Of a DNA stretch of 64,000 nucleotides, positions 983-64,000 are shown in pieces. Under the pieces are notes generated by a model. It had not been told where the DNA came from. It did not search any database and was given only the letters and a program-made list of their open reading frames with translations. Source of the stretch: Chthonomonas sp. UBA2387. Lineage in GTDB: Bacteria; Armatimonadota; Fimbriimonadia; Fimbriimonadales; Fimbriimonadaceae. The position numbers and the translations under genes were made by a program. How positions within the stretch are numbered: position 1 is the stretch's first letter; each line of letters begins with the position of its first letter. The stretch covers positions 300 through 64,299 of the forward strand of contig DDSP01000049.1 of the NCBI GenBank assembly GCA_002343445.1. The letters are read 5' to 3'.

Positions 983-1858
983 ATGTCAGCCTCTCCCGTC
1001 GCCTCTGCCGAGCCGGTCATGGGCGTCTTGGAGGCCATCGTCCTTGGCATCGCGCAAGGCCTCACCGAGTTCCTGCCGATCAGCAGCACGGCCCACATCC
1101 GCGTCATCCCCGCCTTCTTTGGCTGGGCAGACCCCGGCGCGGCGTTCACGGCCGTCATCCAACTGGGCACGCTGCTGGCCGTGCTGATCTACTTCCGTGG
1201 AGACATCGCACGCATCGCCAAGGCGTGGTTTCGCGGCCTGACGGACCCCGTCGCACGGCGCGAGCAAGACTCCAAAATGGGCTGGATCATCGCCTTGGGC
1301 ACCATCCCCATTCTCGTCCTTGGCCTGGCGTTCAAGAGCCAGATCGAAAAGGACTGGCGGTCGTTGGAGATCATCGGTTGGACGCTGATCGGCATGGGGT
1401 TGCTCATGGGCGCCGCCGAGCGGTTCGGCCCGCAACGCCGCGGTTTGGATGCCGTGACGTGGAAGGACGGCCTTTGGGTGGGCATCTGGCAGTCCATGGC
1501 CCTCATCCCCGGCGCGAGCCGCAGCGGTTCGACGATCACCGGGGGCCTGATCTTCGGCCTCGACCGTGCGGCCGCCGCGCGCTTCTCGTTCCTGCTGAGC
1601 ATTCCGAGCATCTTCGCCGCCGGGTTGCTGAGCATGAAGGAGCACGCCTCGGCCCTGTTCGGCGCACAAGCCGTCCCCGTGCTGGTCGCCACGGTCGCAG
1701 CCTTCGTCTCAGGCTACTGGGCGATCGACTTCCTGCTCAAGTTTTTGGCGCGGCGCAGCGTGTACGTCTTCGTGGTGTACAGAGTGGTTCTGGGTGTCGT
1801 CCTCTTGGCGCTCCTTCGCCAAGGCGTCCTCTCGCCCATGCAGGGCATGCTTCCCTAG
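983..1858 (+). CDS. uppP: Undecaprenyl-diphosphate phosphatase
   Basis: 291 aa. LGIAQGLTEFLPISSTAHIRV and the ALIPGASRSGSTITGGL motifs are typical of BacA/UppP. Polytopic membrane profile. Confidence 0.9.
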   Translation: MSASPVASAEPVMGVLEAIVLGIAQGLTEFLPISSTAHIRVIPAFFGWADPGAAFTAVIQLGTLLAVLIYFRGDIARIAKAWFRGLTDPVARREQDSKMGWIIALGTIPILVLGLAFKSQIEKDWRSLEIIGWTLIGMGLLMGAAERFGPQRRGLDAVTWKDGLWVGIWQSMALIPGASRSGSTITGGLIFGLDRAAAARFSFLLSIPSIFAAGLLSMKEHASALFGAQAVPVLVATVAAFVSGYWAIDFLLKFLARRSVYVFVVYRVVLGVVLLALLRQGVLSPMQGMLP

Positions 1859-1862
1859 CGGC

Positions 1863-1925
1863 TGGAGGGACACGCTCCGTCGTGTCCACCGAGGTCCCGT
1901 GGGCATGACGGAGCATGCCCCTCCA
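1863..1925. repeat. REP-like palindromic element, dimer of two inverted ~25-nt hairpin units
   Basis: tggagggacacgctccgtcgtgtcc, then a 13-nt spacer, then gggcatgacggagcatgcccctcca. Each unit is a 7-bp stem with a 6-nt loop. It lies in the convergent gap between uppP and the beta-helix gene. The right unit is identical to the one at 62416-62440. Confidence 0.8.
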
Positions 1926-1939
1926 CAGGGCATCGTTAG

Positions 1940-3274
1940 CTAGGGGCGCACGAGTACGGGGAAGTGGGGGGCGACGACCCGGTAGGGAAGGAACTCGCGA
2001 ACCCACGCAGGCGACGCAACACGCCGCAATCGGCCACTCGGCTCGACCCGCGCGCCAGCCCCCGTGCCGACCCTCAACCCGGGCCCGGAGTAGGCGACCA
2101 CCGTTCCGTACAGGCCCTCGTTCCGCAGTACCGTGGGCTCTCGGTCGGCAAAGTTGCCCTCGAAGCGTACATGGGCTTCGCGCCCGGTCGGCCACGCGAT
2201 CGCATAGGTCGGCGCGCCGACGATCCGGTTGTCCTTCACCACCACCTGAGTCGGCTTCGCGGAACGCAGATCGATCCCCCCGGTCGCCCCGGCCCAATGC
2301 TTGGGCTGACCCGTCTGGCGGAACGTATTGAACTCGAGCGTCACACCCTCCCGGGGGCCGTCGCCGCCCCACGTGCCGAAGAAGAACCCCGAGCCACGCG
2401 TCCGCTCCACCACGTTGTCCCGGAACGCGATGCGCCGCGCCACGGAGTCCTTGCCTTCGGCGCTCAACACCATGCCCCACTCGGCGTCTTGCACCAGGTT
2501 CGAAGCCATCTCGACATCCCGTAGTTCGCCAAACCAAGCGTCCACGTACAGCCCTTGCCGATCCACGTCGTGAACCCAGTTGTGGTGCACAATGCCCTCG
2601 CGGCTGATCTCCTTGACGTCGATGCCCTCCTTGGTGCAATGGTGGACGTGGTTGTACGCCACCTCGAAACCGGCGATGCCGGCCACGCTCAAGGCTTCGT
2701 GCGGCGCTTCCCGAAGGTGGTCCCCGAACAGCCGCCGGTCCTGCGTGTTGGCCCTAGTGATCGTGTTGCCCAAGACCCGAACGTTCGAGGAGTTCCACAA
2801 TGCGATGCCCGGTCCGAACGTCGTGTCGACCGTGTTCCCCACCAGATCAACGCGGTCGCAGCCCTCTTGCACCTTGATGCCCGCCGCAGCCGACCGGTAA
2901 ACCGACAGCCCTTCGACCCTCACCCAAGAGACGCCCCGCAGGTCCAGTACGGCCGACTCGAGCCACGCGCCCGGTTCGGAGGGCTCGAAGTGGGTGCCAT
3001 CCAGCACGGGCTTCTGACCCGGCTTCGCGACGATGACCAGCCAGGCACCCGCCGCACCGGAACGCCTGACTACGACGGGTTCCGAAACGGGATAGGTGGC
3101 TCCGGCCAGTTCGATGCGCACCCCCGGCCCTGCGTGTTCGAGAGCAGCACTCAGGCTGGCGAACGGCTTGCCCGGCGATCCGTCGCCGTTCGGTGCAGCG
3201 TTGGGGTCCACGTGAAGCGTCATCGCCGGAATCCCGACAGCCAGCAGGACGAGAGATGCGACCGTCATACCCAC
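1940..3274 (-). CDS. Secreted right-handed parallel beta-helix repeat protein (pectate-lyase-fold, polysaccharide-active)
   Basis: 444 aa with an N-terminal signal-like segment (MGMTVASLVLLAVGIPAMT). The start reads DPNAAPNGDGSPGKPFASLSAALEHAGPG. Repeated G-N/VxDN strands follow (LVGNTV, VLGNTI, FRDNVV, VKDNRI). It neighbours a GH53 gene. Confidence 0.7.
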   Translation of the reverse strand: MGMTVASLVLLAVGIPAMTLHVDPNAAPNGDGSPGKPFASLSAALEHAGPGVRIELAGATYPVSEPVVVRRSGAAGAWLVIVAKPGQKPVLDGTHFEPSEPGAWLESAVLDLRGVSWVRVEGLSVYRSAAAGIKVQEGCDRVDLVGNTVDTTFGPGIALWNSSNVRVLGNTITRANTQDRRLFGDHLREAPHEALSVAGIAGFEVAYNHVHHCTKEGIDVKEISREGIVHHNWVHDVDRQGLYVDAWFGELRDVEMASNLVQDAEWGMVLSAEGKDSVARRIAFRDNVVERTRGSGFFFGTWGGDGPREGVTLEFNTFRQTGQPKHWAGATGGIDLRSAKPTQVVVKDNRIVGAPTYAIAWPTGREAHVRFEGNFADREPTVLRNEGLYGTVVAYSGPGLRVGTGAGARVEPSGRLRRVASPAWVREFLPYRVVAPHFPVLVRP

Positions 3275-7611: not shown

Positions 7612-7660
7612 TGGTGCTATTGTAACCAGAGAGGGCCTCGTTCGGGGCCATAAGTCCGGT

Positions 7661-12419: not shown

Positions 12420-14569
<2,150 letters not shown>

Positions 14570-28095: not shown

Positions 28096-28120
28096 TCCCT
28101 CAAGGTACCACTCCCGGCCC

Positions 28121-28145
28121 TGGAGGGGCACGCTCCGTCGTGCCC
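28121..28145. repeat. REP-like hairpin unit (single copy)
   Basis: tggaggggcacgctccgtcgtgccc lies between the ABC permease stop and the rlmN start. It belongs to the same family as the units at 1863, 14587 and 62381. Confidence 0.7.
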
Positions 28146-28157
28146 GACGGTCGAGTC

Positions 28158-28967
28158 CTAGCGCCCCTTCGGGTCGAGGGCGGCGCGGATGCCGTCGCCC
28201 ACGAAGTTCAGGGCGAAGATGGTCATGCTCAACACGACGCACGGCCAGAACAGCAGCGACGGGTACGAGTTCATCTGCAGCCGCGCGTTGTTGATCATGC
28301 TGCCCCAACTGGGGTCGGGCGCCTGAACGCCGATGCCGAGGAAGCTCAAGGTGCTCTCGGCCAGAATCGTGCCCGCAAGGCTGATCATGGTCACGGCCAT
28401 CAGCACGCCGTACAACTGCGGCACGACGTGGCGCGTCACCGTGTAGAACGTCGAAGCGCCCAGCGCCTTCGAAGCGACCACGAACTCGCGATCCTTGAGC
28501 GAGGCCACTTGGGTGAACACCAGGCGCGCAGTCCCCGGCCATCCCGTGATGCTCAAAGCCACGATCACGGGGATGATCCCGGCCTTCCACACGCCGATGA
28601 TGAGGATGGCAAGCAGGATGTCCGGGAACGCGAACATGCCGTCCGTGAACCGCATGAGCGGCATGGCCACCCAGCGGGGAGCATAGACGCCCGTCACGCC
28701 CACGAACACGCCGATGAACAGCGCGATGGCCTGAACGGTGAGGCCGATGAGCAGCGACAGCCGCGCGCCATAGGCGATGCGGGCGAACACGTCGCGCCCG
28801 ATCTCGTCCGTCCCCAGCCAAAACGTCGCCGACGAGGGCTGCAAAGGCTGGCCCACCTGCTCCAGATAGTGGTGGCGGAACGTCGGGCCGAACATCGCGA
28901 ACAGGGCCAGCAACACGAGGTACGTCACCCCGCCCCAGAACAGGAAGTCGAACTTGCGCTTCCTCAT
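28158..28967 (-). CDS. ABC transporter permease, Opp/Dpp C-type
   Basis: MRKRKFDFLFWGG...WLGTDEIGRDVFARIAYGARLSL...FTDGMFAFPDILLAILI...SKALGAS.. has the BPD_transp_1/OppC features. The start is set at the ATG at complement 28965-28967. Confidence 0.85.
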   Translation of the reverse strand: MRKRKFDFLFWGGVTYLVLLALFAMFGPTFRHHYLEQVGQPLQPSSATFWLGTDEIGRDVFARIAYGARLSLLIGLTVQAIALFIGVFVGVTGVYAPRWVAMPLMRFTDGMFAFPDILLAILIIGVWKAGIIPVIVALSITGWPGTARLVFTQVASLKDREFVVASKALGASTFYTVTRHVVPQLYGVLMAVTMISLAGTILAESTLSFLGIGVQAPDPSWGSMINNARLQMNSYPSLLFWPCVVLSMTIFALNFVGDGIRAALDPKGR

Positions 28968-29914
28968 ACCTGCGACTCCCGGATGCGCGGATCGAGCAAG
29001 GGCAGCAGCAGGTCCACCAGCAGGTTCACGCAGATGAACATCATGCCGGTGAGCAGGATGCACGCCTGCATCACGGGCGTGTTGCCCTGTTGGATGGCCT
29101 CGATGGCCAGGAAGCCGATGCCCGGCAACACGAAGAACCGCTCGACGACGAACGAGCCCGTGAGCAAGAAGCCGAAGCTCGTGCCCATGGCCGTGAGCAC
29201 GGGCAGGATGGCGTTGCGGAGCGCGTGCCGCAGGATCATCCGCCAAAACGGGACGCCCTTGGCCACAGCCGTGCGGATGAACTCCTGCTCCAGCGTGTCC
29301 ACCATGCTGGCCCGCGTGAGACGCGTGAGCATCGCCCCGGGGCGCGCCGCCAGAATCAGCACGGGAAGGATCAAGTAGTAAAGCTCGGGCGCGACGAGTT
29401 CGGTGCTCCACGTCTGGGGCAAGACGTCCCATTTGAGGCTGAAAAAGTAGACCAGGATCGGAGCCAACACAAAATTGGGCACAGTGACCCCCAGCGTGCT
29501 GAACACGAGCACGCTCCGATCGATTCCCCGGTTCTCCCAGACGGCCGCGATGGTCCCCAGCGTGACGCCGAACAGAGCGGCGGCCACGATGGCGAACATC
29601 GCGATCTTCACGGTCATGGGCAGGTTGCGCTTGAGGATCGTCCAGACCTCCTCTTTGGTCCCGTAGTAGCTCGTGCCGAAGTCGAGTCGTACCGCGTTGC
29701 CCAGGAACTCGCCGTACCGCACGGGCCAGGGCCGGTCGAGCCCGTACAGCTTCCGCAGCCGCGCGATGGTCTCGGGGGAGGCCTTTTCGCCGGCTTCGAC
29801 GGTCGCCCGGTCGCCGGGCGCGATCTCGTCCGCCACGAACGTGACGAACGAAATGAAGATCAGGCTGAGCAACCCGAAGGCGAAGCGCAACAGGATGGCT
29901 TTGGCTAGGCGCAC
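28964..29914 (-). CDS. ABC transporter permease, Opp/Dpp B-type
   Basis: 316 aa. MRLAKAILLRFAFGLLSLIFISFVTF...LDRPWPVRYGEFL...EFIRTAVAKG is typical of OppB/DppB. It has a 4-nt overlap with the downstream permease gene. Confidence 0.85.
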   Translation of the reverse strand: MRLAKAILLRFAFGLLSLIFISFVTFVADEIAPGDRATVEAGEKASPETIARLRKLYGLDRPWPVRYGEFLGNAVRLDFGTSYYGTKEEVWTILKRNLPMTVKIAMFAIVAAALFGVTLGTIAAVWENRGIDRSVLVFSTLGVTVPNFVLAPILVYFFSLKWDVLPQTWSTELVAPELYYLILPVLILAARPGAMLTRLTRASMVDTLEQEFIRTAVAKGVPFWRMILRHALRNAILPVLTAMGTSFGFLLTGSFVVERFFVLPGIGFLAIEAIQQGNTPVMQACILLTGMMFICVNLLVDLLLPLLDPRIRESQV

Positions 29915-37981: not shown

Positions 37982-38056
37982 TGGTGAGCCGGCTGGGATT
38001 CGAACCCAGGGCCCACGCCTTAAAAGGGCGTTGCTCTACCGCTGAGCTACCGGCTC
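37982..38056 (-). tRNA. tRNA-Lys (anticodon UUU), CCA encoded
   Basis: The minus strand reads gagccgg-ta-gctc-agcggta-gagc-a-acgcc-cttttaa-ggcgt-gggcc-ctggg-ttcgaat-cccag-ccggctc-a-cca. All four stems pair perfectly. The anticodon loop is CUUUUAA. Confidence 0.95.
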
Positions 38057-52274: not shown

Positions 52275-52310
52275 GGCTGTCTTCTTTCGAGCTTGCGCTT
52301 GAAGCGGCGG

Positions 52311-53423: not shown

Positions 53424-53428
53424 AGCGG

Positions 53429-53875
53429 TCAGCGGCTCACAGGAACGACCATCGGCGCTCCGGCAAACGGATCGCCGCCCACAGCGTAGGCGCGATCTTG
53501 CCGCAGGTCGATCGTCGGCTCGATCCGGTCCACGGTCTGCATGGGATCGGCGGTCGTTCGATAGACCGTGGCGATGGCGTAGCCGGCTGCGATCGCGGCG
53601 ACTCCGCCGGCAAGGACGGTCCACCGGACTTGCAGTCTGGGGTGAACCACGTGATCGCTCGCCCGAACCGAGGCCATGATCTTCTCGGCCATGAACTCGG
53701 AAGGCTCGGGAGGCGGCATTTCGGAGAGCAGCCGCTTGAGTCGGGCCATCTCTTCGAGTTCGTGGCCGCAGTTGCGGCAGGAGTATGCGTGCGATCGGAC
53801 TTCCATCATTTCCACCCCGGTGAGTTCCTCGTCCACATAGGCGGACATCATCGTTCGGATCTTGCGGCAGCTCAC
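53429..53875 (-). CDS. Anti-sigma factor, zf-HC2 type with single TM
   Basis: CRKIRTMMSAYVDEELTGVEMMEVRSHAYSCRNCGHE is the H-x3-C-x2-C zinc motif. A central TM follows (WTVLAGGVAAIAAGYAIA). It has a 4-nt overlap with the sigma gene. Confidence 0.8.
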   Translation of the reverse strand: MSCRKIRTMMSAYVDEELTGVEMMEVRSHAYSCRNCGHELEEMARLKRLLSEMPPPEPSEFMAEKIMASVRASDHVVHPRLQVRWTVLAGGVAAIAAGYAIATVYRTTADPMQTVDRIEPTIDLRQDRAYAVGGDPFAGAPMVVPVSR

Positions 53876-54531
53876 GACATCATCTCCGCGTACTTGTTGG
53901 GGTTCTTCTTCACGAGGTACTCGCGCAAGCGCTGGCGGCCACGATGGATGCGGGATCGAACGGTGCCGATGGACGTCTGCATGATCTCGGAGATTTCTTC
54001 GTAAGCGAGCCCCTCGACGTCGGCAAGGAGCACGGCCAATCGGAACTCCACGGGCAGAGAAAGCAATCCGGCCTGGACCGTGTCGTCCAGCGCGTTGCGC
54101 ATCAGTGCGTATTCCGGCGACGCCTCGGGGTCGGCGAAATCGAACCCGGCGGGCGCCTCGTGGGTGCTTTGGCTGAAGCTGAGCATGCGGAGTCGGTTCT
54201 TCTTACGCACGCTGTCGATGTACGCGTTCGTCATGATTCGGTACAGCCAGCTCGCGAACGGCAGAGAGCGGTCGTAGCGGTCGAAAAACCGATACGCGCG
54301 CACATAGGCCTCCTGAAGGAGGTCTTCGGCCTCGCTGCAGTTGCCGGTCATGCGGCAAGCGAGCCCGAAAGCCTGCTTGTGCGACTCCTTGAAGAGCTTC
54401 TCGAACAGGGCGATGTCCCTCTCCGAGATTGCGGTTTTCTGTCTGACGATGGCTCCGATCATGGTTGCCAATTCCACCCGGTCCCCGGTTCCTATGGATT
54501 CCGTACCAGTGTTACGCGAATGCGCTGACAT
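53872..54531 (-). CDS. ECF-family RNA polymerase sigma-70 factor (RpoE-like)
   Basis: Region 2 (EDLLQEAYVRAYRFFDRY....FASWLYRIMTNAYID) and region 4 (LAYEEISEIMQTSIGTVRSRIHRGRQRL) are present. The start could instead be the downstream ATG at complement 54460-54462. Confidence 0.85.
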   Translation of the reverse strand: MSAHSRNTGTESIGTGDRVELATMIGAIVRQKTAISERDIALFEKLFKESHKQAFGLACRMTGNCSEAEDLLQEAYVRAYRFFDRYDRSLPFASWLYRIMTNAYIDSVRKKNRLRMLSFSQSTHEAPAGFDFADPEASPEYALMRNALDDTVQAGLLSLPVEFRLAVLLADVEGLAYEEISEIMQTSIGTVRSRIHRGRQRLREYLVKKNPNKYAEMMS

Positions 54532-54600
54532 TATGTTCCCGGTTCCGTGTTTCTGGGGAAAACGGGTCCATGGGCCCGTCCGACGGGACGGACCAAGCCC

Positions 54601-55146
54601 TCACGATTTACCTTGGAGCCACTCGCCCCACTCATCGCTCGAACCCTTGCCGACCCACTCGGTCTCGATCCCCTTGGCCATGAGGAGTTCGGAGAGCTGA
54701 CCCACGTGGCCTTGCAGATGCCGCAGGTTCATTAGGACGTGGGACAGCTTGCCGAAGTCCCGATACCACCGGTAGCCGGAGTCGCGATCGAAGTCGAGAC
54801 CGTTGATCGTCGGCTCGACGATGCTGGTCAGGTAAGCGACGAAGGCAAGTGTCTCGCCGCGAGTCAGCGGCTCGGCATCCACGGGTAGCTCGTAGGGCTC
54901 CAAATTGGCTGGGTCGGGCCAGAGGTCCTCGTGCTTGCCGGATGGACGATTGGGCCAGGGCTTGTAGGCCGCCTCGTCCTGCACCAGATAGACATGGGTG
55001 AAAAACGCGGCGTGGAACGCGATCCGCCACATTTCCCGTTGTGGTGCTCCCATCAACCAAAGGTCTTCCGGGCACTTCTCGACACAGTCCGCCAGCATGG
55101 CCAATCCGGCCCGGAACTGCTCGACCAATGCTGGGCGGATGTCCAT
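54601..55146 (-). CDS. DinB-family (four-helix bundle) protein
   Basis: MDIRPALVEQFRAGLAMLADCVEKCPEDLW...AFHAAFFTHVYL...NLRHLQGHVGQLSELL has the DinB-like His pattern. The start is set at the ATG at complement 55144-55146. Confidence 0.65.
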   Translation of the reverse strand: MDIRPALVEQFRAGLAMLADCVEKCPEDLWLMGAPQREMWRIAFHAAFFTHVYLVQDEAAYKPWPNRPSGKHEDLWPDPANLEPYELPVDAEPLTRGETLAFVAYLTSIVEPTINGLDFDRDSGYRWYRDFGKLSHVLMNLRHLQGHVGQLSELLMAKGIETEWVGKGSSDEWGEWLQGKS

Positions 55147-55209
55147 TCTGTTGGGGCAATCTTGGGGCGAGGCTCGGCTGGCCCCGCCCCTCACAGGGTT
55201 CGGAGCAGG

Positions 55210-56499
55210 CTAACCCAGCAGCTTCTCGATTTCCTCGCGGAACTTCTTGAACGTCGCCGGGCTATAGCCGATCTTCACCGAGTGAACCGTACCGTCGCGG
55301 CCGATCACGGTCACGTGGGGGATGCCGGTCACACCGTAGGCGTCGAAGTTCGACCGCTCGCCGTACACGACCGGCCACGGCAATTGGTGGTCGGCGATGA
55401 AGTCCTTCATCTTGGCGTACTCGGCGTCCTTCTCCAAGTTCCGCTCGGTCTTGTAATAGCCGTAGTACGTGGTGAACCCGACGATCTCGAGGCCCTTGGG
55501 CTTCAGGTCGGCGTACATCTGCTTCATGTCCGGGAACGAGTTGATGCACGGGCCGCACCAGTGGGCGAAGAAGTCGAGCAGGACGACCTTGCCCTTCAGG
55601 CTCTCCAGCCCTTCGAACTTGCCATAGCCGCGCTCCACGGTCAGGGCCGGGGCTGCCGCGCCCACCATGCTCATGCGCGTCAGACTGCCCTTCGCGCGGC
55701 GATAGGTGGCGTCGGCGGGGTCGGTCTTGGCCACAAAGGCCTCCAGGATCGCCTTGCCTTCGGCACTCCTTCCGGCATCGGACAACAGTTCGGCGCGCCG
55801 TTCGGCGATGGCGAATTCAAGGCTGCCGCGTTGCGTCTTGGCCGTGGCCAAGTATTGGGCCTTCAGCTTCTCGGCGTCGCCGTCGGGAGTCCGCTTGAGC
55901 TGCGCTTCCACCATGCGCTTGGCGAACGCCTCGGGGTCTTCGTACTTCATGTTCCGCTCGGCGCTGGCGAGCATCTTGAGCGCTTCGTCCACCGACATCT
56001 GCTTGGCCACCGTCTCGGTGAACTCGTAGACCACGGAACTCAGGAACTGCTGGCTCGCCATGGGCGTGGGCGGCTCGACCGTCGGCACCATCATCGTAAG
56101 CATGTGACCCTCTTCGAGCGCGTTGCACGAGTTGAGCATCAGCATCTTCGCGTCGAAGGTCTTCTGCGGGTCGGGGTTGGTGGTAAGGAACTTGGCGCAC
56201 AGGTCGCAGGTCTCCTTGTGCTTGCCCGCCATGCTGAACACCTCGGCCCACGCGTAGGCGTCCTTGGCCGGGATGGTGGCGGGGTCCATGCCCGCGATCG
56301 CCGCAAGAGCCTTCTCTTGGATGAGCTTGTTCAGCGCGTCCACGTCGAGCGAACCCGACGCCCGAGCGTCGTTGACGGCCTTGGTGCGGGCCGCTTGGAT
56401 CTCCTTGAGCACCTGTTGCGGGTCGGTTTGGGCCCACGCCGCGCAAGCGACGGTCGCCATCAAGGCCAGAGAAAGCAGAGATCGGGTCCAGTTCTTCAT
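55210..56499 (-). CDS. Secreted TlpA/ResA-like thiol:disulfide oxidoreductase with a large helical N-terminal domain
   Basis: This is the real gene inside the composite 654-aa ORF. It has the signal peptide MKNWTRSLLSLALMATVACAAWA and a C-terminal thioredoxin fold (VVLLDFFAHWCGPCINSFP...GVTGIPHVTVIGRDG). Confidence 0.8.
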   Translation of the reverse strand: MKNWTRSLLSLALMATVACAAWAQTDPQQVLKEIQAARTKAVNDARASGSLDVDALNKLIQEKALAAIAGMDPATIPAKDAYAWAEVFSMAGKHKETCDLCAKFLTTNPDPQKTFDAKMLMLNSCNALEEGHMLTMMVPTVEPPTPMASQQFLSSVVYEFTETVAKQMSVDEALKMLASAERNMKYEDPEAFAKRMVEAQLKRTPDGDAEKLKAQYLATAKTQRGSLEFAIAERRAELLSDAGRSAEGKAILEAFVAKTDPADATYRRAKGSLTRMSMVGAAAPALTVERGYGKFEGLESLKGKVVLLDFFAHWCGPCINSFPDMKQMYADLKPKGLEIVGFTTYYGYYKTERNLEKDAEYAKMKDFIADHQLPWPVVYGERSNFDAYGVTGIPHVTVIGRDGTVHSVKIGYSPATFKKFREEIEKLLG

Positions 56500-56589
56500 G
56501 AAGTCGGCTCCAGAGTTGCGACCATCATAACACGGATCGAAGGTCCGTGGTTCGCCAAGCTGGTCGCAGGGCTCGGGTAACTTCGGCGC

Positions 56590-57348
56590 GTGCCTCCTCC
56601 TCTTTCGATCCAGCTTTACACTCTCCGCAACGAGATGGCCAACGGCAACCATCTCCCCATCCTGCAAAAGCTCGCCGACATCGGTTACAAGGGCGTGGAG
56701 GGCTACGGCTACGGCATGACGCCCGCCGAGTTCCGCAAGGTCGTCGAAGACATGGGCATGGTCGTCTCCTCCTACTTCGGCCCCACGCCGACCCCGGAGA
56801 CCGTCCAGGAGTTCATCGACACCGCTGGCGAACTCGGCACAAACCTGACCGTCTCGGGCTTTTGGATTCCCGAATTCGAGACCGTGGACGCCATCCGCGC
56901 CACCGCGGACCGGCTGAACGCCGTTCTGCCGACGTTGCACGCCGCGGGCCTGACGTTCGCCCTGCACAACCACTGGATGGAGTTCGAGCAGCGCGAAGGC
57001 CGCCTGGCCATCGAGCACCTCCTGGAGTTCTGCCCGGCCCTCGAACTCGAACTGGACGTCTACTGGTGTTCCGCGTTCGGCGCAAACGATCCCGCCGAGA
57101 TGATGGCCCGATTCGCCGACAAGGTCCCGCTGATGCACATGAAGGACGGCCCGTTCGTCAAGGGCGAGCCCCACGTGGCCGTCGGCTCGGGCAAGCTCGA
57201 TGTAGGCGCGGTGATGAAAGCGCGCAATCGAGACGTGCTGAGGTGGGTCGTGGTCGAACTCGACGAGTGCGCCACCGACATGGTCCAGGCCGTCGAAGAC
57301 AGCTACCGCTACTTGGTCGGTAACGGCTACACGGGCGGCAACCGCTGA
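56590..57348 (+). CDS. Sugar phosphate isomerase/epimerase (xylose-isomerase-like TIM barrel)
   Basis: LSIQLYTLRNEM...GYKGVEGYG....ALHNHWMEF...LELDVYW...MHMKD has the family-typical pattern. GTG start. Confidence 0.75.
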   Translation: MPPPLSIQLYTLRNEMANGNHLPILQKLADIGYKGVEGYGYGMTPAEFRKVVEDMGMVVSSYFGPTPTPETVQEFIDTAGELGTNLTVSGFWIPEFETVDAIRATADRLNAVLPTLHAAGLTFALHNHWMEFEQREGRLAIEHLLEFCPALELELDVYWCSAFGANDPAEMMARFADKVPLMHMKDGPFVKGEPHVAVGSGKLDVGAVMKARNRDVLRWVVVELDECATDMVQAVEDSYRYLVGNGYTGGNR

Positions 57349-57381
57349 AGGAATCCGAGCCTCGGGTGCGAACCTGAACGT

Positions 57382-60303
57382 GTGGATCCCCTGATCGCCC
57401 CGCGCGTGTTGCGCGCTGTCTCGGATGCGCCCGCCCTCGAAGCCAAACGCCTGCTCAGGCGTCTGCGATGCCAGTTGGCGTGCGCCGAAGGCTTGGTTCC
57501 TCTGTTGGACGATCGGGGCGAAGGTCGCCGGCTACTGGAAGAAGCCAAGGGCTTGGCGAACGGGTTCGACGGCGGCCTTGGCGAACTGGCCGACCTGGTG
57601 ACCCGCGTGGAGAGGGTGCTGGCCCCGCTCGGCGAGGCGGCGAAGCGCTACACCGTGATTTGCGTAGGGCATGGCCACATCGACATGAACTGGATGTGGT
57701 CGTGGCAGGAGACCGTCTCCGCGACGCACGACACGTTCGCGTCGGTGCTCTCGTTCATGGACCAGGTCCCCGAGTTCACCTACAGCCAGAGCCAGGCCAG
57801 CGTCTACGCCCTGATGGAGCGCTACCACCCCACGATGTTCGAGGCCATCCGGCAACGCGTTCGCGAGGGGCGCTGGGAGATCACTGCCTGCCACTGGGTG
57901 GAAGGCGACAAGAATCTCGCCAGCGGCGAGTCGCTGGCCCACCACATGCTCTACACCCGAAAGTACTTCCAAGAGCGGTTCGGTCTGGGCCCCGAAGACC
58001 TCCCCGTGGACTGGGAGCCCGACACCTTTGGCCATGCCGACAGCATCCCGAACGTGTTGGCGCAGGGCGGCGCGAAGTACTACTACTCGTGCCGCACCGG
58101 AGGCGGGCACGGCCACTTGCGGACGGGCGAGCCTCGCCCCCCTGTGTTCTGGTGGCAGGGGACGGATGGCTCTCGGGTGCTGGTCCACCACGAAACCACT
58201 TGGTACAACAGCGACGTCAACATCGGCGACGACGTCTCGGCCCCGCTGTTCGCGTTCGCCTCGGCCACGGGCCTGAGCACTTGGCTGAACGTGTATGGAG
58301 TGGGCAACCACGGGGGCGGCCCGACGCGCGCCGAAATCGAGCGCTACATCGAGATGCGCGACTGGCCCATCTACCCGAACGTGCGGTTCGGAACCTCCAA
58401 GGAGTACTTCGAAGCGATCGAGGCGCAGATTGCCTCGGGGGTCGAGGTGCCGACGGTCCAAGGCGAACTGAACTACGAGTTCACGGGCTGCTACACGTCG
58501 CAAAGCGCGATCAAGCGGGCCAACCGCTTCGGAGAGAACTTCATGGTCGAAGCGCAAACCCTGACCGCTTTGGCGCACCGAACCAAGGGCGGCCCCCATC
58601 GCGGCGACCTGCTGCGCGAAGGGTGGCTGAACGTGCTCTTCAACCAGTTCCACGACATCCTTCCGGGCTCGGGCATCGCGGCTACGCGGGAGCACGCTAT
58701 GGGCCTCTATCAAGAAACGGCGGCGATCGCGGGCTCGGCCAAGCGCGAAGCGACCAAGACCCTGGCTTCGCGAGTGAACACGGCGCGGCTGTTGCCCGAT
58801 ACGCCCGAGGGTCGCGCAGAACGCGCCGCGATCGTCAACACGCCGTTTGTGGCCGGAGCGGGTATGGGCGCGCGCGAGACGGGCTTTTCGAACGCCTCGG
58901 GCGGAGGCAAGCGCTTCAGGCCGTACGTCGTCTTCAACCCCTGTGCCTGGACGCGGTCCGAGCCCGTGACGGTCCACCTCTACGACACCGACTTCGACCC
59001 GTCGCTGATCGTCGCCCGGGACGAAGAGGGCGTCGAGCATCCCACAATGTTCCTCGGTCGCGAACACGATTGGGGACACGACAAGCTCACCGTGCTCTTC
59101 CTGGCCGCCGACGTGCCGCCGATGGGCTACAAGACCTTCCTGCTGTGCGAAGGGAAGGCCGCTCCTGTCGCCGAACCCGTGGTGCGCCTCGACGACGTCA
59201 CCGTGCAAACGCCTCACTTGCGAGTCCAGTTCAACCGAGCCTACGGGTCGGTGGCCCTGATCGAAACCGCCGAAGGCATGCTCGGCAACGGGGGGTTCAT
59301 GCCCGCGATCGGGCTCGTCGCCCATACCGAAGCGCCACGCGGGATGACGGCATGGGTGTTGGGCGACCGGCTCGGGCCCGACGACGAGCCCATCGCCGAG
59401 AGCTTCCACATCGCGGCGGGACCCCGAAACCAGGGCACCTCGGCTCCCCTGGGCACGCCGCAGGTCGCTGCACTGGCCGAGGCCCGCTTGCGCTTGCCCG
59501 GCGGATCGAGCACGATGCGGACGCGGACGTGGGTCCACGGCTTGGGACGACGGCTGGACGGCGAGATCGAGATGGACTGGCGCGAGATCGGCGACCAAGA
59601 GCGGGGCATTCCCGGCCTGTCGCTGGCGATCCACGCCGACGTCAACGACCTCGACCCCGAGAGCGAGGCCGTCTACGAAACGCCCTACGGCGTGATCGAG
59701 CGGGCCATGCCCGACGACCACGAGTACCCGCAAGACGTCCCCTCGCTCCGGTTCGCCACGTTCCGAGCCGGGCGGCTTTGGGTGACGCTGGTTCAGGATT
59801 CGAAGTACGGCCACCGACGGACGAGCGGCGATCTGCGGCTGCGGCTGATGCGATCGTCGTTCGACCCCGATCACGCGCCCGAGGTCGGCATCTCGAAGGT
59901 CAGCTACTCGGTGTATCTGGACGAACACAAGCCAGACCATGCGGAACTCGTGCGGCGCGGCGCGGGCCACAACCATCCGTTCCTGGTGTTTCCGACCGAT
60001 TTGCGCGAAGGCGACGAGCCAACCACGCGTTCGTTCGTGTCGGTTTCGGGCGAGAGCGTCGTGCTGGCGCACCTGAAGCTGGCCGAGGAAGGCGGGGGAC
60101 TCCTGGTTCGATTGGTGAACTACGGTGATGAGCCCTCGTGCGCCACATTGGAGTTCGACCCCGCGGTGGTCGAAGGGTTGACGCGATTCGTGGCGACCGA
60201 CCTGATGGAGCGACCGACCGGAGACTTCCAGCCGATGTCGGGGAGCGGGCTTCGTGCCACGGTGCCGGGGCGTTCGTTCGTTTCGTTGCGGCTGGAACCC
60301 TAG
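57382..60303 (+). CDS. GH38 alpha-mannosidase
   Basis: CVGHGHIDMNWMWSWQET, YSQSQASVY, CHWVEGDKNL and WEPDTFGHA are the GH38 N-terminal catalytic-domain motifs. 973 aa is the typical size. The exact start (GTG at 57382) is uncertain. Confidence 0.9.
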   Translation: MDPLIAPRVLRAVSDAPALEAKRLLRRLRCQLACAEGLVPLLDDRGEGRRLLEEAKGLANGFDGGLGELADLVTRVERVLAPLGEAAKRYTVICVGHGHIDMNWMWSWQETVSATHDTFASVLSFMDQVPEFTYSQSQASVYALMERYHPTMFEAIRQRVREGRWEITACHWVEGDKNLASGESLAHHMLYTRKYFQERFGLGPEDLPVDWEPDTFGHADSIPNVLAQGGAKYYYSCRTGGGHGHLRTGEPRPPVFWWQGTDGSRVLVHHETTWYNSDVNIGDDVSAPLFAFASATGLSTWLNVYGVGNHGGGPTRAEIERYIEMRDWPIYPNVRFGTSKEYFEAIEAQIASGVEVPTVQGELNYEFTGCYTSQSAIKRANRFGENFMVEAQTLTALAHRTKGGPHRGDLLREGWLNVLFNQFHDILPGSGIAATREHAMGLYQETAAIAGSAKREATKTLASRVNTARLLPDTPEGRAERAAIVNTPFVAGAGMGARETGFSNASGGGKRFRPYVVFNPCAWTRSEPVTVHLYDTDFDPSLIVARDEEGVEHPTMFLGREHDWGHDKLTVLFLAADVPPMGYKTFLLCEGKAAPVAEPVVRLDDVTVQTPHLRVQFNRAYGSVALIETAEGMLGNGGFMPAIGLVAHTEAPRGMTAWVLGDRLGPDDEPIAESFHIAAGPRNQGTSAPLGTPQVAALAEARLRLPGGSSTMRTRTWVHGLGRRLDGEIEMDWREIGDQERGIPGLSLAIHADVNDLDPESEAVYETPYGVIERAMPDDHEYPQDVPSLRFATFRAGRLWVTLVQDSKYGHRRTSGDLRLRLMRSSFDPDHAPEVGISKVSYSVYLDEHKPDHAELVRRGAGHNHPFLVFPTDLREGDEPTTRSFVSVSGESVVLAHLKLAEEGGGLLVRLVNYGDEPSCATLEFDPAVVEGLTRFVATDLMERPTGDFQPMSGSGLRATVPGRSFVSLRLEP

Positions 60304-60350
60304 CGGCCAACAAACGGTTCGAACTGAGGTCGGGACGGTGTGTGACAACC

Positions 60351-61016
60351 ATGGCTCCCCGCCCGTTTTCTATTCCTATGGAACCCCACGCTTCGCCGCT
60401 CTCCGTTCAGATTCGCCAAGCCTTCGACCGCGAAGCGGGCGAGATCACGTTCGGGGAGTTTCTCGAACGCATCGAGGAACGCAGTTTTGGGTTCCTGCTG
60501 GTGCTGCTCTCCATCCCTTCGGCGTTGCCGCTGCCGGCGCCGGGCTATTCGGTGCCGTTCGGCATCGTGCTTTCGCTGCTGGCCGTTCAGATGATCCGCC
60601 GCCGCTCGCAGCCGTGGTTTCCGGAACGCGTGCTGCAGCGGAAGATCAAGTCGAGCGGCGACTCCAAAGTGGTGAGGGGCATGACGCGGTTTATCGCCTT
60701 CTTCGAGCGGATGCTCAAGCCACGCGGCGCCAGCCTGTTCCGCACCGGCGTGTTTCCCAGCTTGCTGGGCGGCGTCATCCTGCTCTGCTCGATGTCTATG
60801 ATCTTGCCGATCCCGCTGACCAACACCCTTCCGGCGCTCGGGATCTTCTTGATGGGCCTGGCCGTGTTGGAGGAGGATCTCGCATTCGGCTTGGTCGGCA
60901 TGGTGGTCGGTCTGCTCGGCCTCGCGCTCACGACGGCGATTCTGGTCGCCATCGCCATGTTCGGCGCCGAGGGTGTGGACGTGGTCAAGAACTGGATCAA
61001 GCCTGGTGCCGACTGA
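60351..61016 (+). CDS. ExoD-family exopolysaccharide synthesis membrane protein
   Basis: ITFGEFLERIEERSFGFLLVLLSIPSALPLPAPGYSVPFGIVL... and C-terminal TM helices fit the ExoD pattern. The start is set at the ATG at 60351. Confidence 0.7.
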   Translation: MAPRPFSIPMEPHASPLSVQIRQAFDREAGEITFGEFLERIEERSFGFLLVLLSIPSALPLPAPGYSVPFGIVLSLLAVQMIRRRSQPWFPERVLQRKIKSSGDSKVVRGMTRFIAFFERMLKPRGASLFRTGVFPSLLGGVILLCSMSMILPIPLTNTLPALGIFLMGLAVLEEDLAFGLVGMVVGLLGLALTTAILVAIAMFGAEGVDVVKNWIKPGAD

Positions 61017-61053
61017 GGCCGTTCGGAACGCGACGGGTACCCTACATCCCTTC

Positions 61054-62634
61054 ATGTCCGTACGAGTCCGCTACGCTCCCAGCCCCACCGGCAGCCCGCA
61101 CGTGGGCAACATCCGCGACGCGCTGTTCAAGCACTACTTCGCCAAGCACCACGGCGGCGTGAACATCCTGCGCATCGAGGACACCGACCGCACACGCTAC
61201 ATCCCGGGCGTCGAGGAAGAGATCGTGGACAGCCTGAACTGGCTCGGCATCGAGTTTCAAGAGGGCTTCGGCGTGGGCGGCGACCACGGCCCCTATCGCC
61301 AGAGCGAGCGCAAAGAAGCGGGCATCTACGCGCGCGAGATCCAGAAGCTGCTGGAATCCGGCCACGCGTACAAGGCGTTCGACACCTCGGAAGAACTCGC
61401 CGAGATGCGCGAGTTCCAGCAGATCAACAAGCAGCCCATCGGCTACTACGGCGGCGTTTGGCGCGACGCCACGCCCGCGATGGTCGAGCAGGCCGAACGC
61501 GAGGGCAAGCCCATGGTGATCCGGCTGCGCATCCCGCGCAACGACACCATCGTCATCCACGACGCCATCCGAGGCCGCATCGAATGGGATTCGAACACCG
61601 TGGACGACCCTGTCCTCATCAAGTCGGACGGCATGCCGACCTACCACTTCGCCGCGATGGTGGACGACCACCTGATGGGCATCACGCACATCATGCGCGG
61701 CGAAGAGTGGATCAGCAGCGCGCCCAAGCACGCCGTCCTCTTCGATGCGTTCGGCTGGGAGCGGCCCGTGTTCGTCCACTGCCCCGTGATCAACGGCAAG
61801 GACGGCAAGAAGCTCAGCAAGCGGCACGGCGACACCAAGTGCCTCGACTACCGAGCGGCGGGCTACCTGCCTCGGGCGCTCAAGAACTTCATCGCCCTCA
61901 TCGGCTGGGCGCCCGGCGGCGACCGCGAACTGATGACCGACGCCGAGATCGCCGAGGCGTTCGACCTCGACGGCCTGCAGCCCGCTCCTGGCGTGTTCGA
62001 CCTGGAGAAGCTGCGCTGGATGAACGGCTGGTACATCCGGTCTCTGGAGCTGGAGAGCCTTCGGAGCGAGGTCGCTGCCTTCGTCGAGCGCGGCGAGTGG
62101 CGGGAGTACTTCGGTCGCCCGACCGACGACCCCGAACTGCTCAAGAAGAACCAGGCGACCCTTGCCGGGCTGGAGACGCTGGCCCTAGGGCTCTCGGGAG
62201 ACCGGGAGTACGCGGGTGCGGCCATCGCCCTGGAGCAGGAGCGGGTAGCCACCCTCGCCGATTTCGGCGAGGCCACGGCGTTCTTCTTCCAAGACGAGCC
62301 CCCTATGGACGAGAAGGCTGTCGCCAAGTGGCTCACCGTGCCTCATGCCCGCGACCTGTTCGAATCCCTCATCTCCTTTCTGGAGGGACCCGCTCCGTCG
62401 GGTCCAGGCGCTGACGGGCATGACGGAGCATGCCCCTCCAGGGGGGTCAAGGTCGAGGAATGCGAGGCGTTCATCCGAGGCTACGGCGAGAAGATGGGCT
62501 TGGAGAAGATGGGCCCGGTGGTGCATCCCGTTCGCGTCGCGCTCACGGGCAAGACGGTCGGCCCAGGCCTGTTCGAACTCATGAGCCTCCTCGGCCCTTC
62601 GCGCATGGTGCGGCGCCTGCGACGCCTTTTGTGA
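61054..62634 (+). CDS. gltX: Glutamate--tRNA ligase (carries an in-frame palindromic-element insertion)
   Basis: VRVRYAPSPTGSPHVGNIR is the HIGH region, KLSKRHG the KMSKS region, and PVRVALTG the C-terminal motif. The start is set at the ATG at 61054. Confidence 0.93.
   Translation: MSVRVRYAPSPTGSPHVGNIRDALFKHYFAKHHGGVNILRIEDTDRTRYIPGVEEEIVDSLNWLGIEFQEGFGVGGDHGPYRQSERKEAGIYAREIQKLLESGHAYKAFDTSEELAEMREFQQINKQPIGYYGGVWRDATPAMVEQAEREGKPMVIRLRIPRNDTIVIHDAIRGRIEWDSNTVDDPVLIKSDGMPTYHFAAMVDDHLMGITHIMRGEEWISSAPKHAVLFDAFGWERPVFVHCPVINGKDGKKLSKRHGDTKCLDYRAAGYLPRALKNFIALIGWAPGGDRELMTDAEIAEAFDLDGLQPAPGVFDLEKLRWMNGWYIRSLELESLRSEVAAFVERGEWREYFGRPTDDPELLKKNQATLAGLETLALGLSGDREYAGAAIALEQERVATLADFGEATAFFFQDEPPMDEKAVAKWLTVPHARDLFESLISFLEGPAPSGPGADGHDGACPSRGVKVEECEAFIRGYGEKMGLEKMGPVVHPVRVALTGKTVGPGLFELMSLLGPSRMVRRLRRLL
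62381..62440. repeat. REP-like palindromic element dimer located inside the gltX coding sequence (60 nt, in frame)
   Basis: tggagggacccgctccgtcgggtcc, then a 10-nt spacer, then gggcatgacggagcatgcccctcca. The architecture matches 1863-1925 and the right unit is identical. It encodes ...L-EGPAPSGPGADGHDGACPSR-G... Confidence 0.8.
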
Positions 62635-62737
62635 ACGACTGGATAGAGCCTCGGAAGCGGGCATCGTTGCCAGCGTTCCCAGTCCATTGTCTAGGCTCCA
62701 AGTTTTACCGGCTAGCTCTCGATGCTTCCATACCGGG

Positions 62738-63958
62738 TCAGTTTCGGATGCGGAGGACGACGTGCTTGCCGTCGCGCAGGTCCTTGGCAAACCACGTGCC
62801 CGACTCGACACCTGGAGAGTGCAGGTCAAAAGGAAAAAAGCCGCCATAGTCCGTCTCGCTCGACCCGGGCCTCAGCAAGTACGTCACTGGCACCAGCGTG
62901 CCCATCCCGTTATGCGCCGCATGTCTCAGCTGGAGGTAGAGGTTGCGGCCTGACCGGAACAGAACCGGCGTGTGGGTGGCCAGCGGCGGGCCTTCGAGCA
63001 TCGTGTTTTGGCGAGGGTTCACGAGGCGTGCTGGCCCGTCGCCGCTGGCGTTGGCGAGGTACAAATGCCCTCTTCCGGCTACTGCCACCCAGTCGCGGTC
63101 GGCAAACGCGAAGTAAGGCACTTGCTTGTCAGGAAAGAGATCGAAGTTGCTGCTGACTGCGACGCCCGCCCCTCGGATCCGCGCACCCGCGAAGGGGTCC
63201 TCCAACGCGGTCAACTCGCGCACCTCGCGACCGTCGAAGCGGTAGGCACGGATGAGGATGTCCTTGTCTTCGGGCATCACCGTGTTGCTGGGGGTGTACG
63301 TTCGGATAAGGAAAGACCTTGCCTCCGGAAGAATCGCCGCGATGCGCTCCCTTTGGGAAAGTCGCGTGGTAACGGTCGGTGTGGAAACGTATCCTCGTTG
63401 GGGGTCGAATGGGCATGCGGCCAAACAGAGTTTGCGCGGGCCCTCGCTTGGACCGAGGTAACGCAACAGGCGCCCTTCGCCGTCGATCGGCCCAACTCCA
63501 AGCGTCGAGCCGTCCACGAGGAGGATCCAGCCCATCTTCGAGTGTTGCGGAAGCCACTGGTCCTCGTGCTGATTGAAGGACCCGACTTCGTCTCGCCGCT
63601 CTTCGCCCCGCCGGTCGGAGAGTGGCATGCCGAGGACCTCGACTTCGTGGGTCGCCCTGGCTTCTCCGGTGATCGTCCAGGTGAGTGTGCCACCTCGCAA
63701 TTGTCCCGTAACGAGGTCAGCGACGTTGGGCAGTCCGTAGAACCTTCCGCGGCCGGCAACGTCCGCCACCGCAACTCCGCGCTTGGACCGCAAATCCCAA
63801 CCCAAAACGAGTGGGGCGAACTTGTCACCGATGACCACGCGGAGCGTGTCGGGAAGACTCACCGCGATCGGTGCGAGCTCGACGCTATGCAGAATGTCCA
63901 CTGCAGGAGTCGTCTGTGCAGTCAGGGGAAGCAGGGCCAAAGGCAACGCGAAGAGCAT
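62738..63958 (-). CDS. Secreted hypothetical protein
   Basis: 406 aa with the signal-like start MLFALPLALLPLTAQT and beta-rich composition. No recognisable motif. Confidence 0.55.
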   Translation of the reverse strand: MLFALPLALLPLTAQTTPAVDILHSVELAPIAVSLPDTLRVVIGDKFAPLVLGWDLRSKRGVAVADVAGRGRFYGLPNVADLVTGQLRGGTLTWTITGEARATHEVEVLGMPLSDRRGEERRDEVGSFNQHEDQWLPQHSKMGWILLVDGSTLGVGPIDGEGRLLRYLGPSEGPRKLCLAACPFDPQRGYVSTPTVTTRLSQRERIAAILPEARSFLIRTYTPSNTVMPEDKDILIRAYRFDGREVRELTALEDPFAGARIRGAGVAVSSNFDLFPDKQVPYFAFADRDWVAVAGRGHLYLANASGDGPARLVNPRQNTMLEGPPLATHTPVLFRSGRNLYLQLRHAAHNGMGTLVPVTYLLRPGSSETDYGGFFPFDLHSPGVESGTWFAKDLRDGKHVVLRIRN

Positions 63959-63959
63959 C

Positions 63960-64000
63960 TCAATCCTCCTCTTCCTCGTCGACCTCTTGAAGATCGAAGT
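63960..64000 (-). CDS. 3' end of an unidentified gene (acidic C-terminus ...FDLQEVDEEEED*)
   Basis: The minus-strand reading frame ends with a TGA at complement 63960-63962, 1 nt before the next gene's ATG. Only 13 codons are visible. Confidence 0.25.
   Translation of the reverse strand, partial: FDLQEVDEEEED

Follow-up and report, generated by a model that had tools for sequence, protein, structure and literature searches.

The gene for glutamate–tRNA ligase, gltX, in a 64,000-nt stretch of Chthonomonas sp. UBA2387 (Armatimonadota; contig DDSP01000049.1), here called the window, contains a 63-nt pair of palindromic hairpins within its reading frame. This stretch is very probably a doublet of repetitive extragenic palindromic (REP) units that was copied in frame into the codons of an inter-helix loop in a recent ancestor, the essential gene staying functional throughout. 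It lies between the residues ...DLFESLISFL and GVKVEECEAF of the predicted protein, with the HPVRVALTG motif further downstream. The gene, the parts of the doublet and the related copies in the window are as follows, where BIME denotes a bacterial interspersed mosaic element and ORF an open reading frame.

61054..62634, + strand: gltX (glutamate–tRNA ligase), unbroken ORF of 526 codons, intact, host of the REP doublet
62380..62442, + strand: REP doublet (REPIN/BIME-like), 63 nt, predicted in-frame translation L-EGPAPSGPGADGHDGACPSR-G
62380..62405, + strand: left REP unit, CTGGAGG tail, perfect 7-bp stem GGACCCG/CGGGTCC, loop CTCCGT; repeat family D4
62406..62415, + strand: spacer of 10 nt between both units, AGGCGCTGAC, read from the sequence
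62416..62441, − strand: right REP unit, inverted, CTGGAGG tail, stem GGGCATG/CATGCCC, loop CTCCGT (on the − strand)
1862..1926, + strand: intergenic REP doublet, with units at 1862–1887 (+) and 1901–1926 (−)
28120..28145, + strand: single intergenic REP unit, stem GGGCACG/CGTGCCC

The doublet reads CTGGAGGGACCCGCTCCGTCGGGTCC-AGGCGCTGAC-GGGCATGACGGAGCATGCCCCTCCAGG, or, divided into its parts, CTGGAGG-GACCCG-CTCCGT-CGGGTC-C / AGGCGCTGAC / G-GCATG(A)-ACGGAG-CATGCC-CCTCCAGG, and the insert-diagnostic stretch of the predicted GltX translation is FLEGPAPSGPGADGHDGACPSRGVK. A first-pass annotation of the window had described a palindromic, REP-like element inserted in frame at this site, and its account of the unbroken frame, of the flanking residues and of a right unit identical in 25 of 25 positions to the intergenic copy at 1901–1925 is borne out. 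An element does lie at the interval it gave, 62381–62440, but the 20 codons it named correspond to 62383–62442 and the element proper to 62380–62442. It had also put the addition at exactly 20 codons; the gain is in frame, but relative to empty-site alleles and insert-free orthologues it amounts to 16 codons net (48 nt), since the places taken by the element's outer arms already hold codons in the empty allele.

The host gene shows the features of a working synthetase. Its translation matches the Pfam profiles tRNA-synt_1c (PF00749, 6e-87) and Anticodon_2 (PF19269, 5e-24), has the glutamyl-tRNA synthetase (GluRS) of T. thermophilus as its top match in PDB (1.7e-107), and visibly retains PHVGN as its HIGH-type motif and KLSKR as its KMSKS-type motif, so that the class I catalytic domain, the alpha-helical anticodon-binding domain and the signature motifs of a GluRS are all present. 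Comparison with a sister strain, represented by contig L001 (a 21.6-kb locus) and its protein P0001, yields 48.5 synonymous and 9.5 nonsynonymous differences, a ratio of nonsynonymous to synonymous rates (dN/dS) of 0.056; by this measure gltX is under strong purifying selection and has retained its function despite the insert. No second intact gltX was found that might relieve it of that role, the only gltX-like extra being a frameshifted 3' fragment in L001. The identical 526-aa GltX occurs on seven contigs from several sources, and the ENA, JGI, NCBI and Logan data each yielded an independent assembly of the window allele.

Orthologues place the insertion in time. Among 60 aligned sequences the segment is found only in P0001 (96% identical), where it is 12 residues longer; the next orthologue, P0002 (77% identical), and most other Armatimonadota GltX have a five-residue loop and no insert. 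In L001, the DNA behind P0001, one extra 36-nt unit plus spacer in direct orientation brings the number of units to three with the frame kept. An allelic series, drawn from the 90%-identity protein cluster of P0001, comprises three classes:

Empty site (0 units): P0247 (510 aa) and P0248 (514 aa); the site reads ...AFLQGRPSVSVAECEAF... (FLQGRPSVSVAEC)
Two units: P0246, which is the window protein (526 aa), and P0245 (530 aa)
Three units: P0001, P0249, P0250 and P0253 (538 aa); P0251 and P0254 (542 aa); P0241 (558 aa)

All of these alleles are in frame. At 60 nt (window) and 96 nt (L001) the insert has a length divisible by three in either case, and the gltX doublet is free of stops in five of its six frames. 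Over 507 shared columns the window protein is 98.0% identical to P0247 and 97.8% to P0248, and because proteins this similar have an empty site, the REP insertion, dated from these alignments, is lineage-specific and recent. The loops of the units mutate freely among the alleles (PAPSGP vs PALSGP). A metagenome scan with the gltX flank for more alleles returned 0 matches.

The insert falls at a structurally lenient position. In an AlphaFold2 model of GltX built on 59 sequences (mean predicted local distance difference test score, pLDDT, 93.8; predicted template modelling score, pTM, 0.89), residues 445–466 form a coil between helices 432–444 and 467–480 of the C-terminal anticodon-binding domain, and pLDDT drops below 50 at residues 454–462. 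A HMMER alignment to T. thermophilus GluRS puts the insert in a gap at about E405–E409, upstream of the residues named for the anticodon pocket of domain V, L427, A431, a conserved Arg, L447 and F448 (PMC12088422). From the model, the encoded peptide is probably a disordered, flexible loop extension rich in Gly, Pro, Ala and Ser. About 15 of the 60 aligned orthologues show some expansion at the same loop, longer and non-palindromic in some Armatimonadota.

In two other Armatimonadota gltX genes this inter-helix loop holds a near-perfect palindrome that is in frame and unrelated to the units described here, at 4309–4366 of L134 (CTCTCCTCTCCCCCCTCCCCAAG..CTTGGGGAGGGGGG..GGAGGAGAG) and at 4324–4379 of L136 (GGGCCAGTGGGAC..GTCCCACTGGCCC). 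No further copies of either were present in any fetched locus, so they are only candidate repeats, and a scan for the arms of the L136 palindrome gave only two unrelated chance palindromes. The loop insert of P0029/L135 was rejected as a palindromic element, since it is not palindromic.

Within the window the unit is plainly a repeat. Five units occupy three sites in the 64 kb, two of the three sites being intergenic and both doublets inverted, and every unit is 26 nt long, its 7-bp stem perfectly paired and its loop 6 nt in length. The doublet at 1862–1926 sits between the stops of a convergent bacA-like gene (983..1858, +) and a beta-helix protein gene (1940..3274, −), and the single unit at 28120–28145 has the stop of an ABC permease gene (28158..29432, −) on one side and the start region of rlmN on the other. 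Each half-pattern finds three matches in the window at up to three mismatches, against 0.00 and 0.01 expected from shuffles. The stems of the window copies (GGACCCG, GGACACG, GGGCACG and GGGCATG) differ by compensating changes that leave each perfectly paired; since they vary yet stay self-complementary, the hairpin itself, and not merely its sequence, has been maintained. As single-stranded DNA the gltX doublet folds into one long hairpin, with an energy of −19.4 kcal/mol (z −2.3) for the + strand and −20.1 kcal/mol (z −3.8) for the − strand, and the doublet at 1862–1926 folds at −23.5 kcal/mol (z −3.5).

Other identities for such hairpins were considered and set aside. An intrinsic terminator was rejected on account of there being no T-run after the hairpins. 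An intron, an intein and translational bypass were likewise rejected, the stretch being only 60–96 nt long and matching no RNA family, and because every allele is in frame and stop-free, as expected of plain translation. An Rfam scan of the window at the gathering threshold gave no family match besides a single tRNA gene (37985–38056, −), and near the element only noise at E≥1. In all units the GGAG of the tag is complementary to CTCC, the first four bases of the loop (e.g., window 62382–62398); an alternative small GGAG/CTCC hairpin within a unit, or pairing of a tag with the loop of another unit, is possible. Tag and loop are kept across phyla while the stem varies.

Beyond the window, a scan with a degenerate 26-mer against one genome per species located the unit family in at least 118 stretches and at least 46 species-level metagenome-assembled genomes (MAGs), which among the matches listed belong to Verrucomicrobiota, Planctomycetota, Kiritimatiellae, Lentisphaerae, Armatimonadota, Latescibacterota, Fermentibacteria, Smithellaceae/Syntrophus and others. 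Simple inverted pairs are the commonest arrangement among the at least 118 loci listed (59, beside 58 singletons and some tandem arrays), and the commonest doublet consists of two consistently distinct hairpins, GGACGCG-CTCCGT-CGCGTCC ... GGCCACG-ACGGAG-CGTGGCC. More than 20 loci with units come from one Smithellaceae MAG, and other MAGs have many separate contigs with units. The tag is GGAG (CTGGAGG) in the window and in at least 139 exact matches elsewhere. Five 14-mers of the unit had no match in literature text and were also absent from the supplements of PMC3733652.

Two further copies of the family in other genomes are in frame. One, at ~4389–4414 of L019, lies in an MmeI-type restriction-modification gene, directly after the TCFETFPFP motif and the target-recognition domain; the other, a doublet at ~1694–1719 of L049, lies in the linker that joins a Ser/Thr kinase domain to an FGE-sulfatase (formylglycine-generating enzyme) domain. 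Candidates in L055 (dnaE), L039 and L061 were rejected as in-frame copies, being upstream of the first protein domain and probably intergenic.

What ties the units to a known class of element is their association with genes for REP-associated tyrosine transposases (RAYTs). Across all fetched loci a motif search found two HUH-Y1 ORFs adjoining units. In L100 (Latescibacterota) a 153-aa ORF scores 88.5 bits on the NCBIfam model NF047646, 'REP-associated tyrosine transposase' (cutoff 80), with a unit 70 nt upstream and a doublet ~100 nt downstream, and its protein has 452 homologues at E≤1e-10, many of them named RayT by JGI. Four further homologue contexts were inspected: in three (L122, L123, L125) GGAG-tailed hairpins with the loop C(T/G)C(C/T)GT stand on both sides within ~100 nt, and in the fourth (L124) a variant hairpin is found upstream only. 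About 17 of the 120 best ORF calls for L100 homologues read through a unit in an N-terminal extension, producing peptides such as GHDRACPS, of the same type as that of the right unit in the window. A RAYT gene flanked by its own REPs, a REPtron, defines REP/RAYT systems (PMC6006769), and this arrangement is present in other genomes, not in the window or L001. The REP identity of the units, and with it the REP-like label of the first-pass annotation, is strengthened by these RAYT-flanking copies. The checks run on the proposals of that annotation, by way of orthologues, a structural model, further copies and a second gltX, all favoured its reading. A lone tblastn match in the window, at 28172–27969 (E 3e-4), was rejected as a RAYT gene: it crosses stop codons, and it aligns the REP-encoded peptide GHD(G/R)ACPS with an N-terminal over-extension of P0149. 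No transposase gene lies between the widely spaced inverted units of L103 and L116, and the ORFs adjoining units in L017 and L024 were uninformative.

A second line of observation concerns the position of the element at a step in sequence identity between the window and L001, and the following block is defined by it.

62380..64000, no strand: identical block, 0 mismatches in 1621 nt against L001 11363–12983

The two sequences are 96.2% identical over 51055–62405 and 100% identical from the REP onward to the window end, the switch occurring at the REP or at most ~60 nt upstream of it. Just past the window end, L001 carries at 13370–13640 (~64387–64660 in window numbering) a degenerate second copy of the REP doublet with the 3'-terminal 195 nt of gltX and a further 18 nt, 89.7% identical over 272 nt, in the same orientation and 2006 nt downstream of the real copy. 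Of the two REP units of this relic, the left one has decayed (loop CTACAT) and the right one remains intact; loss of 1 nt throws the relic out of frame, and on its left the duplicated stretch is bounded by the edge of the REP. Other strains have the C-terminal type of the relic, ..RRVLSSAA, as their functional gltX end, and of the two C-terminal types, ..RR[LF]L* and ..RRVLSSAA*, each is seen with 0, 2 and 3 units. The empty-site strain represented by L139 is without the 1.26-kb relic-bearing segment (L001 12972–14229). A contig of the window sequence, ENA ERZ761602 NODE_494, ends at ~64153, 234 nt before the expected position of the relic; in other runs, short contigs are delimited by the two copies of REP plus gltX 3' end. 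The identity step may thus be a recombination breakpoint or strain-chimeric assembly at the repeat; taken together, these observations suggest that the REP inside gltX may serve as a recombination junction as well.

In the mechanism we favour, a RAYT would recognise and cleave the GGAG-tagged hairpin on single-stranded DNA and copy the doublet to a new site, by analogy with E. coli TnpA-REP and with IS200/IS605. The doublet probably entered the codons of a short inter-helix loop in the C-terminal anticodon-binding domain of GluRS in a recent Fimbriimonadaceae-like ancestor, and with no stop in the frame used and a net gain of 48 nt the frame was kept and the essential gene stayed functional. 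The location in a permissive loop would arise because only in-frame, stop-free and structurally harmless copies persist in an essential gene. The element would then be translated as a Gly/Pro/Ala/Ser-rich, probably disordered extension of 16 residues, presumably neutral, and in some strains one 36-nt unit plus spacer was later duplicated in frame, perhaps by slippage or unequal exchange, and tolerated because a period of 36 nt is divisible by three. Nothing suggests a function for the insert peptide, since near-identical proteins have empty alleles and the loops of the units mutate.

Several observations weigh against transposition of a REP doublet into this gene. The canonical foot motif of REPs is GTAG or GT[AG]G (PMC3733652, PMC6006769) and the conserved tag here is GGAG, so that by its tag the family is a variant and not a canonical GTAG REP. 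No RAYT gene is found in the window or in the 21.6-kb L001 locus (regular-expression search and tblastn with 120 homologues), because of which we infer the RAYT link for this genome only from the other genomes. Neither is the difference between the filled and the empty site that of a clean cut-and-paste event. Specifically, the empty-site DNA of L139 reads TTC TTG CAG GGT CGT CCA TCC GTT TCT GTT GCG GAG and that of the window TTT CTG GAG GGA [..] TCC AGG GGG GTC AAG GTC GAG GAA, so that about three codons on each side also differ, and a target-site duplication is absent from this comparison; for both reasons the chemistry of insertion is not readable from it. Comparison with the 77% orthologue did not reveal the exact insertion point or the target site, and the empty allele gives both only approximately. 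As in a miniature inverted-repeat transposable element, the outer arms CTGGAGG/CCTCCAG are inverted, but there is no duplicated target and the flanking codons are altered. Moreover, the identity switch and the shuffling of unit numbers against C-terminal types show, on the alleles compared, that recombination moved the REP segment between strains, and this strain may have received its REP by recombination rather than by transposition. Such an account, in which homologous recombination with a related strain brought in, or reshuffled, a 3' part of gltX that bears the REP, the REP being the junction, is a possible one, appreciably less probable than direct insertion. It would explain identity rising from 96.2% up to the REP to 100.000% after it (0 of 1621 nt mismatched), the occurrence of 0, 2 and 3 units with both C-terminal types, the frameshifted relic 2006 nt downstream in L001 whose left edge coincides with that of the REP, and the unusual divergence from the empty allele of the codons directly 3' of the REP. 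Against this, the identity switch could be produced by strain-chimeric metagenome assembly, contigs do end at the duplication, and import accounts for the distribution of the element but not for its origin inside the gene; it is compatible with an original transposition in some ancestor.

Co-option of the REP loop, or of the hairpin in RNA or DNA, for a role in tRNA discrimination, mRNA stability or the tuning of gltX expression, with retention under selection, appears improbable. The insert does persist in many strains and samples, and the same loop has received unrelated palindromes in the L134 and L136 lineages and longer non-palindromic expansions in others, but proteins 98% identical have the site empty, unit number is variable, disorder is predicted for the peptide, which includes none of the residues named as anticodon contacts, the change from PAPSGP to PALSGP illustrates how freely the unit loops mutate, and intragenic REPs are regarded as neutral in the published account (PMC3733652). 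A chance palindrome, an ordinary expansion of a loop whose length does vary across Armatimonadota GltX, or an assembly artefact, any of which would remove the mobile repeat altogether, is hardly credible given a right unit matching an intergenic copy in 25 of 25 positions with ~0 such matches expected by chance, a unit found at no fewer than 118 loci elsewhere, and independent assembly of the allele in the ENA, JGI, NCBI and Logan data.

The insertion of a REP doublet into gltX has close precedents. The first-pass annotation held in-frame palindromes to be known from Rickettsia and rare elsewhere, which calls for correction, since in-frame REP insertions are not confined to that genus: Di Nocera et al. 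(2013) reported GTAG- and CGTC-tagged REPs inside real ORFs of species from several phyla, namely Opitutus terrae, Erythrobacter litoralis, Xanthomonas oryzae, Thioalkalivibrio and Rickettsia conorii, more than half of them dimers or groups encoding 20–30 residues, with the synthetase genes glyS (X. oryzae, E. litoralis) and ileS (E. litoralis) among the hosts, and regarded them as tolerated, probably neutral decorations (PMC3733652). Like those, the present element is a short hairpin dimer wholly within a real aminoacyl-tRNA synthetase gene; it keeps the frame, is stop-free, resides in a host gene under selection and has insert-free homologues. It differs in its GGAG tag (vs GTAG/CGTC), its gltX host and its occurrence in Armatimonadota, and goes beyond the earlier cases in offering natural 0-, 2- and 3-unit alleles in near-identical proteins, by which the event is dated and in-frame expansion is shown. 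Nothing is overturned: REP dimers lying in frame within synthetase genes were already published in 2013 (PMC3733652). The kind of event is thus already known, and what is new here is the gltX host, the phylum Armatimonadota, the GGAG-tagged family and the allelic series.

As a family, the units resemble the REP/BIME/REPIN-RAYT systems of Escherichia, Pseudomonas and Stenotrophomonas (PMC2817692, PMC3116915, PMC6006769) in being hairpins of 20–40 nt with a conserved 5' tetranucleotide at the foot, arranged in inverted doublets and, in other MAGs, dispersed over many separate contigs, and in having, in other genomes, a gene for a single-domain HUH-Y1 transposase with its own REPs on both sides. 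Unlike classical REPs they carry a GGAG tag and a CTCCGT loop that is conserved across phyla and complementary to the tag, and the two units of a doublet consistently differ in stem. Classical families are mainly proteobacterial, whereas this one spans the Planctomycetes–Verrucomicrobia–Chlamydiae (PVC) group, Armatimonadota, Latescibacterota, Desulfobacterota and others, with no RAYT in the window. Cleavage and rejoining of REPs have been demonstrated only for E. coli TnpA-REP, and the ends of IS200/IS605 elements, on which a Y1 HUH transposase acts as single-stranded DNA, have subterminal hairpins with a guide tetranucleotide 5' of the foot (PMC6006769). The left and right hairpins of the present doublets are similar but distinct, as in IS200/IS605 ends and in palindrome-associated transposable elements (PATEs). 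Unlike IS200/IS605, however, there is no transposase or TnpB between the hairpins, and no target tetranucleotide is readable from the comparison of filled and empty sites.

Rickettsia palindromic elements (RPE) were reportedly described by Ogata et al. in 2000 as selfish palindromes lying in frame in protein genes, essential ones included. Their inserts add a surface peptide without destroying the function of the host protein; RPE-1 is ~100–150 bp long and confined to Rickettsia, and we know of no dedicated transposase for it. The likeness to RPE lies in behaviour, namely in-frame insertion, and only there: unlike RPE-1, the element in gltX is a 63-nt doublet of 26-nt units, belongs to a RAYT-linked family and occupies another host phylum. 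RPE-1, RPE-4 and RPE-6 are mentioned in PMC3733652.

The 0-, 2- and 3-unit alleles, found in proteins 97–100% identical, form a clean natural series for the remodelling of an essential protein by selfish DNA, and since such alleles exist, the neutrality or cost of a REP-encoded synthetase loop is directly testable. The finding also brings Armatimonadota, and a GGAG-tagged family present in many little-studied phyla, into REP/RAYT biology, and serves as a reminder that intragenic repeats can break metagenome assemblies, leaving strain-chimeric contigs or marking real recombination junctions. More speculatively, the GGAG/CTCCGT hairpins and their RAYT clade might constitute an undescribed REP superfamily across many phyla (PVC, Armatimonadota, Latescibacterota, Desulfobacterota, others), whose doublets enter essential genes and expand there unit by unit; the domain V loop of GluRS might be a recurrent landing or tolerance site for unrelated palindromes, and the intragenic REP a junction for swapping and duplicating the 3' end of gltX. 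If true, this tentative proposal would explain both the identity step at the REP and the REP-bounded relic of the gltX 3' end.

Some minor features of the family and of the locus are recorded here. Tandem arrays of units occur at 7626–7819 of L055, in L031, L036, L115 and L116, and at 11327–11424 of L001, with periods of 30, 36 and 42 nt, all divisible by three; the L055 array, from a Chthonomonas MAG, has 4–5 units and lies just upstream of the PHP domain of dnaE. Single units in conserved flanks (..ATGTTTTGGAGA [unit] GCAGGAGTTTTGCAAGAAACTC...) were seen in Smithellaceae, Verrucomicrobiota and one 'actinobacterium' MAG, at the following loci.

Conserved-flank composite: L007, L016–L018, L022–L024, L026, L027, L046, L060, L072, L078, L081, L088, L091, L096, L110, L117–L119

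The sharing of this composite by several phyla suggests a larger mobile or structured element that holds a REP unit. The Kiritimatiellae loci L009, L041, L080 and L092 have conserved flanks of their own around the units. Finally, the identical block downstream of the doublet includes a gene for a 406-aa predicted secreted protein (62738–63958, −), convergent to gltX and without a Pfam match, and in the empty-site strain of L139 the homologous region is called as two ORFs of 265 and 133 aa.

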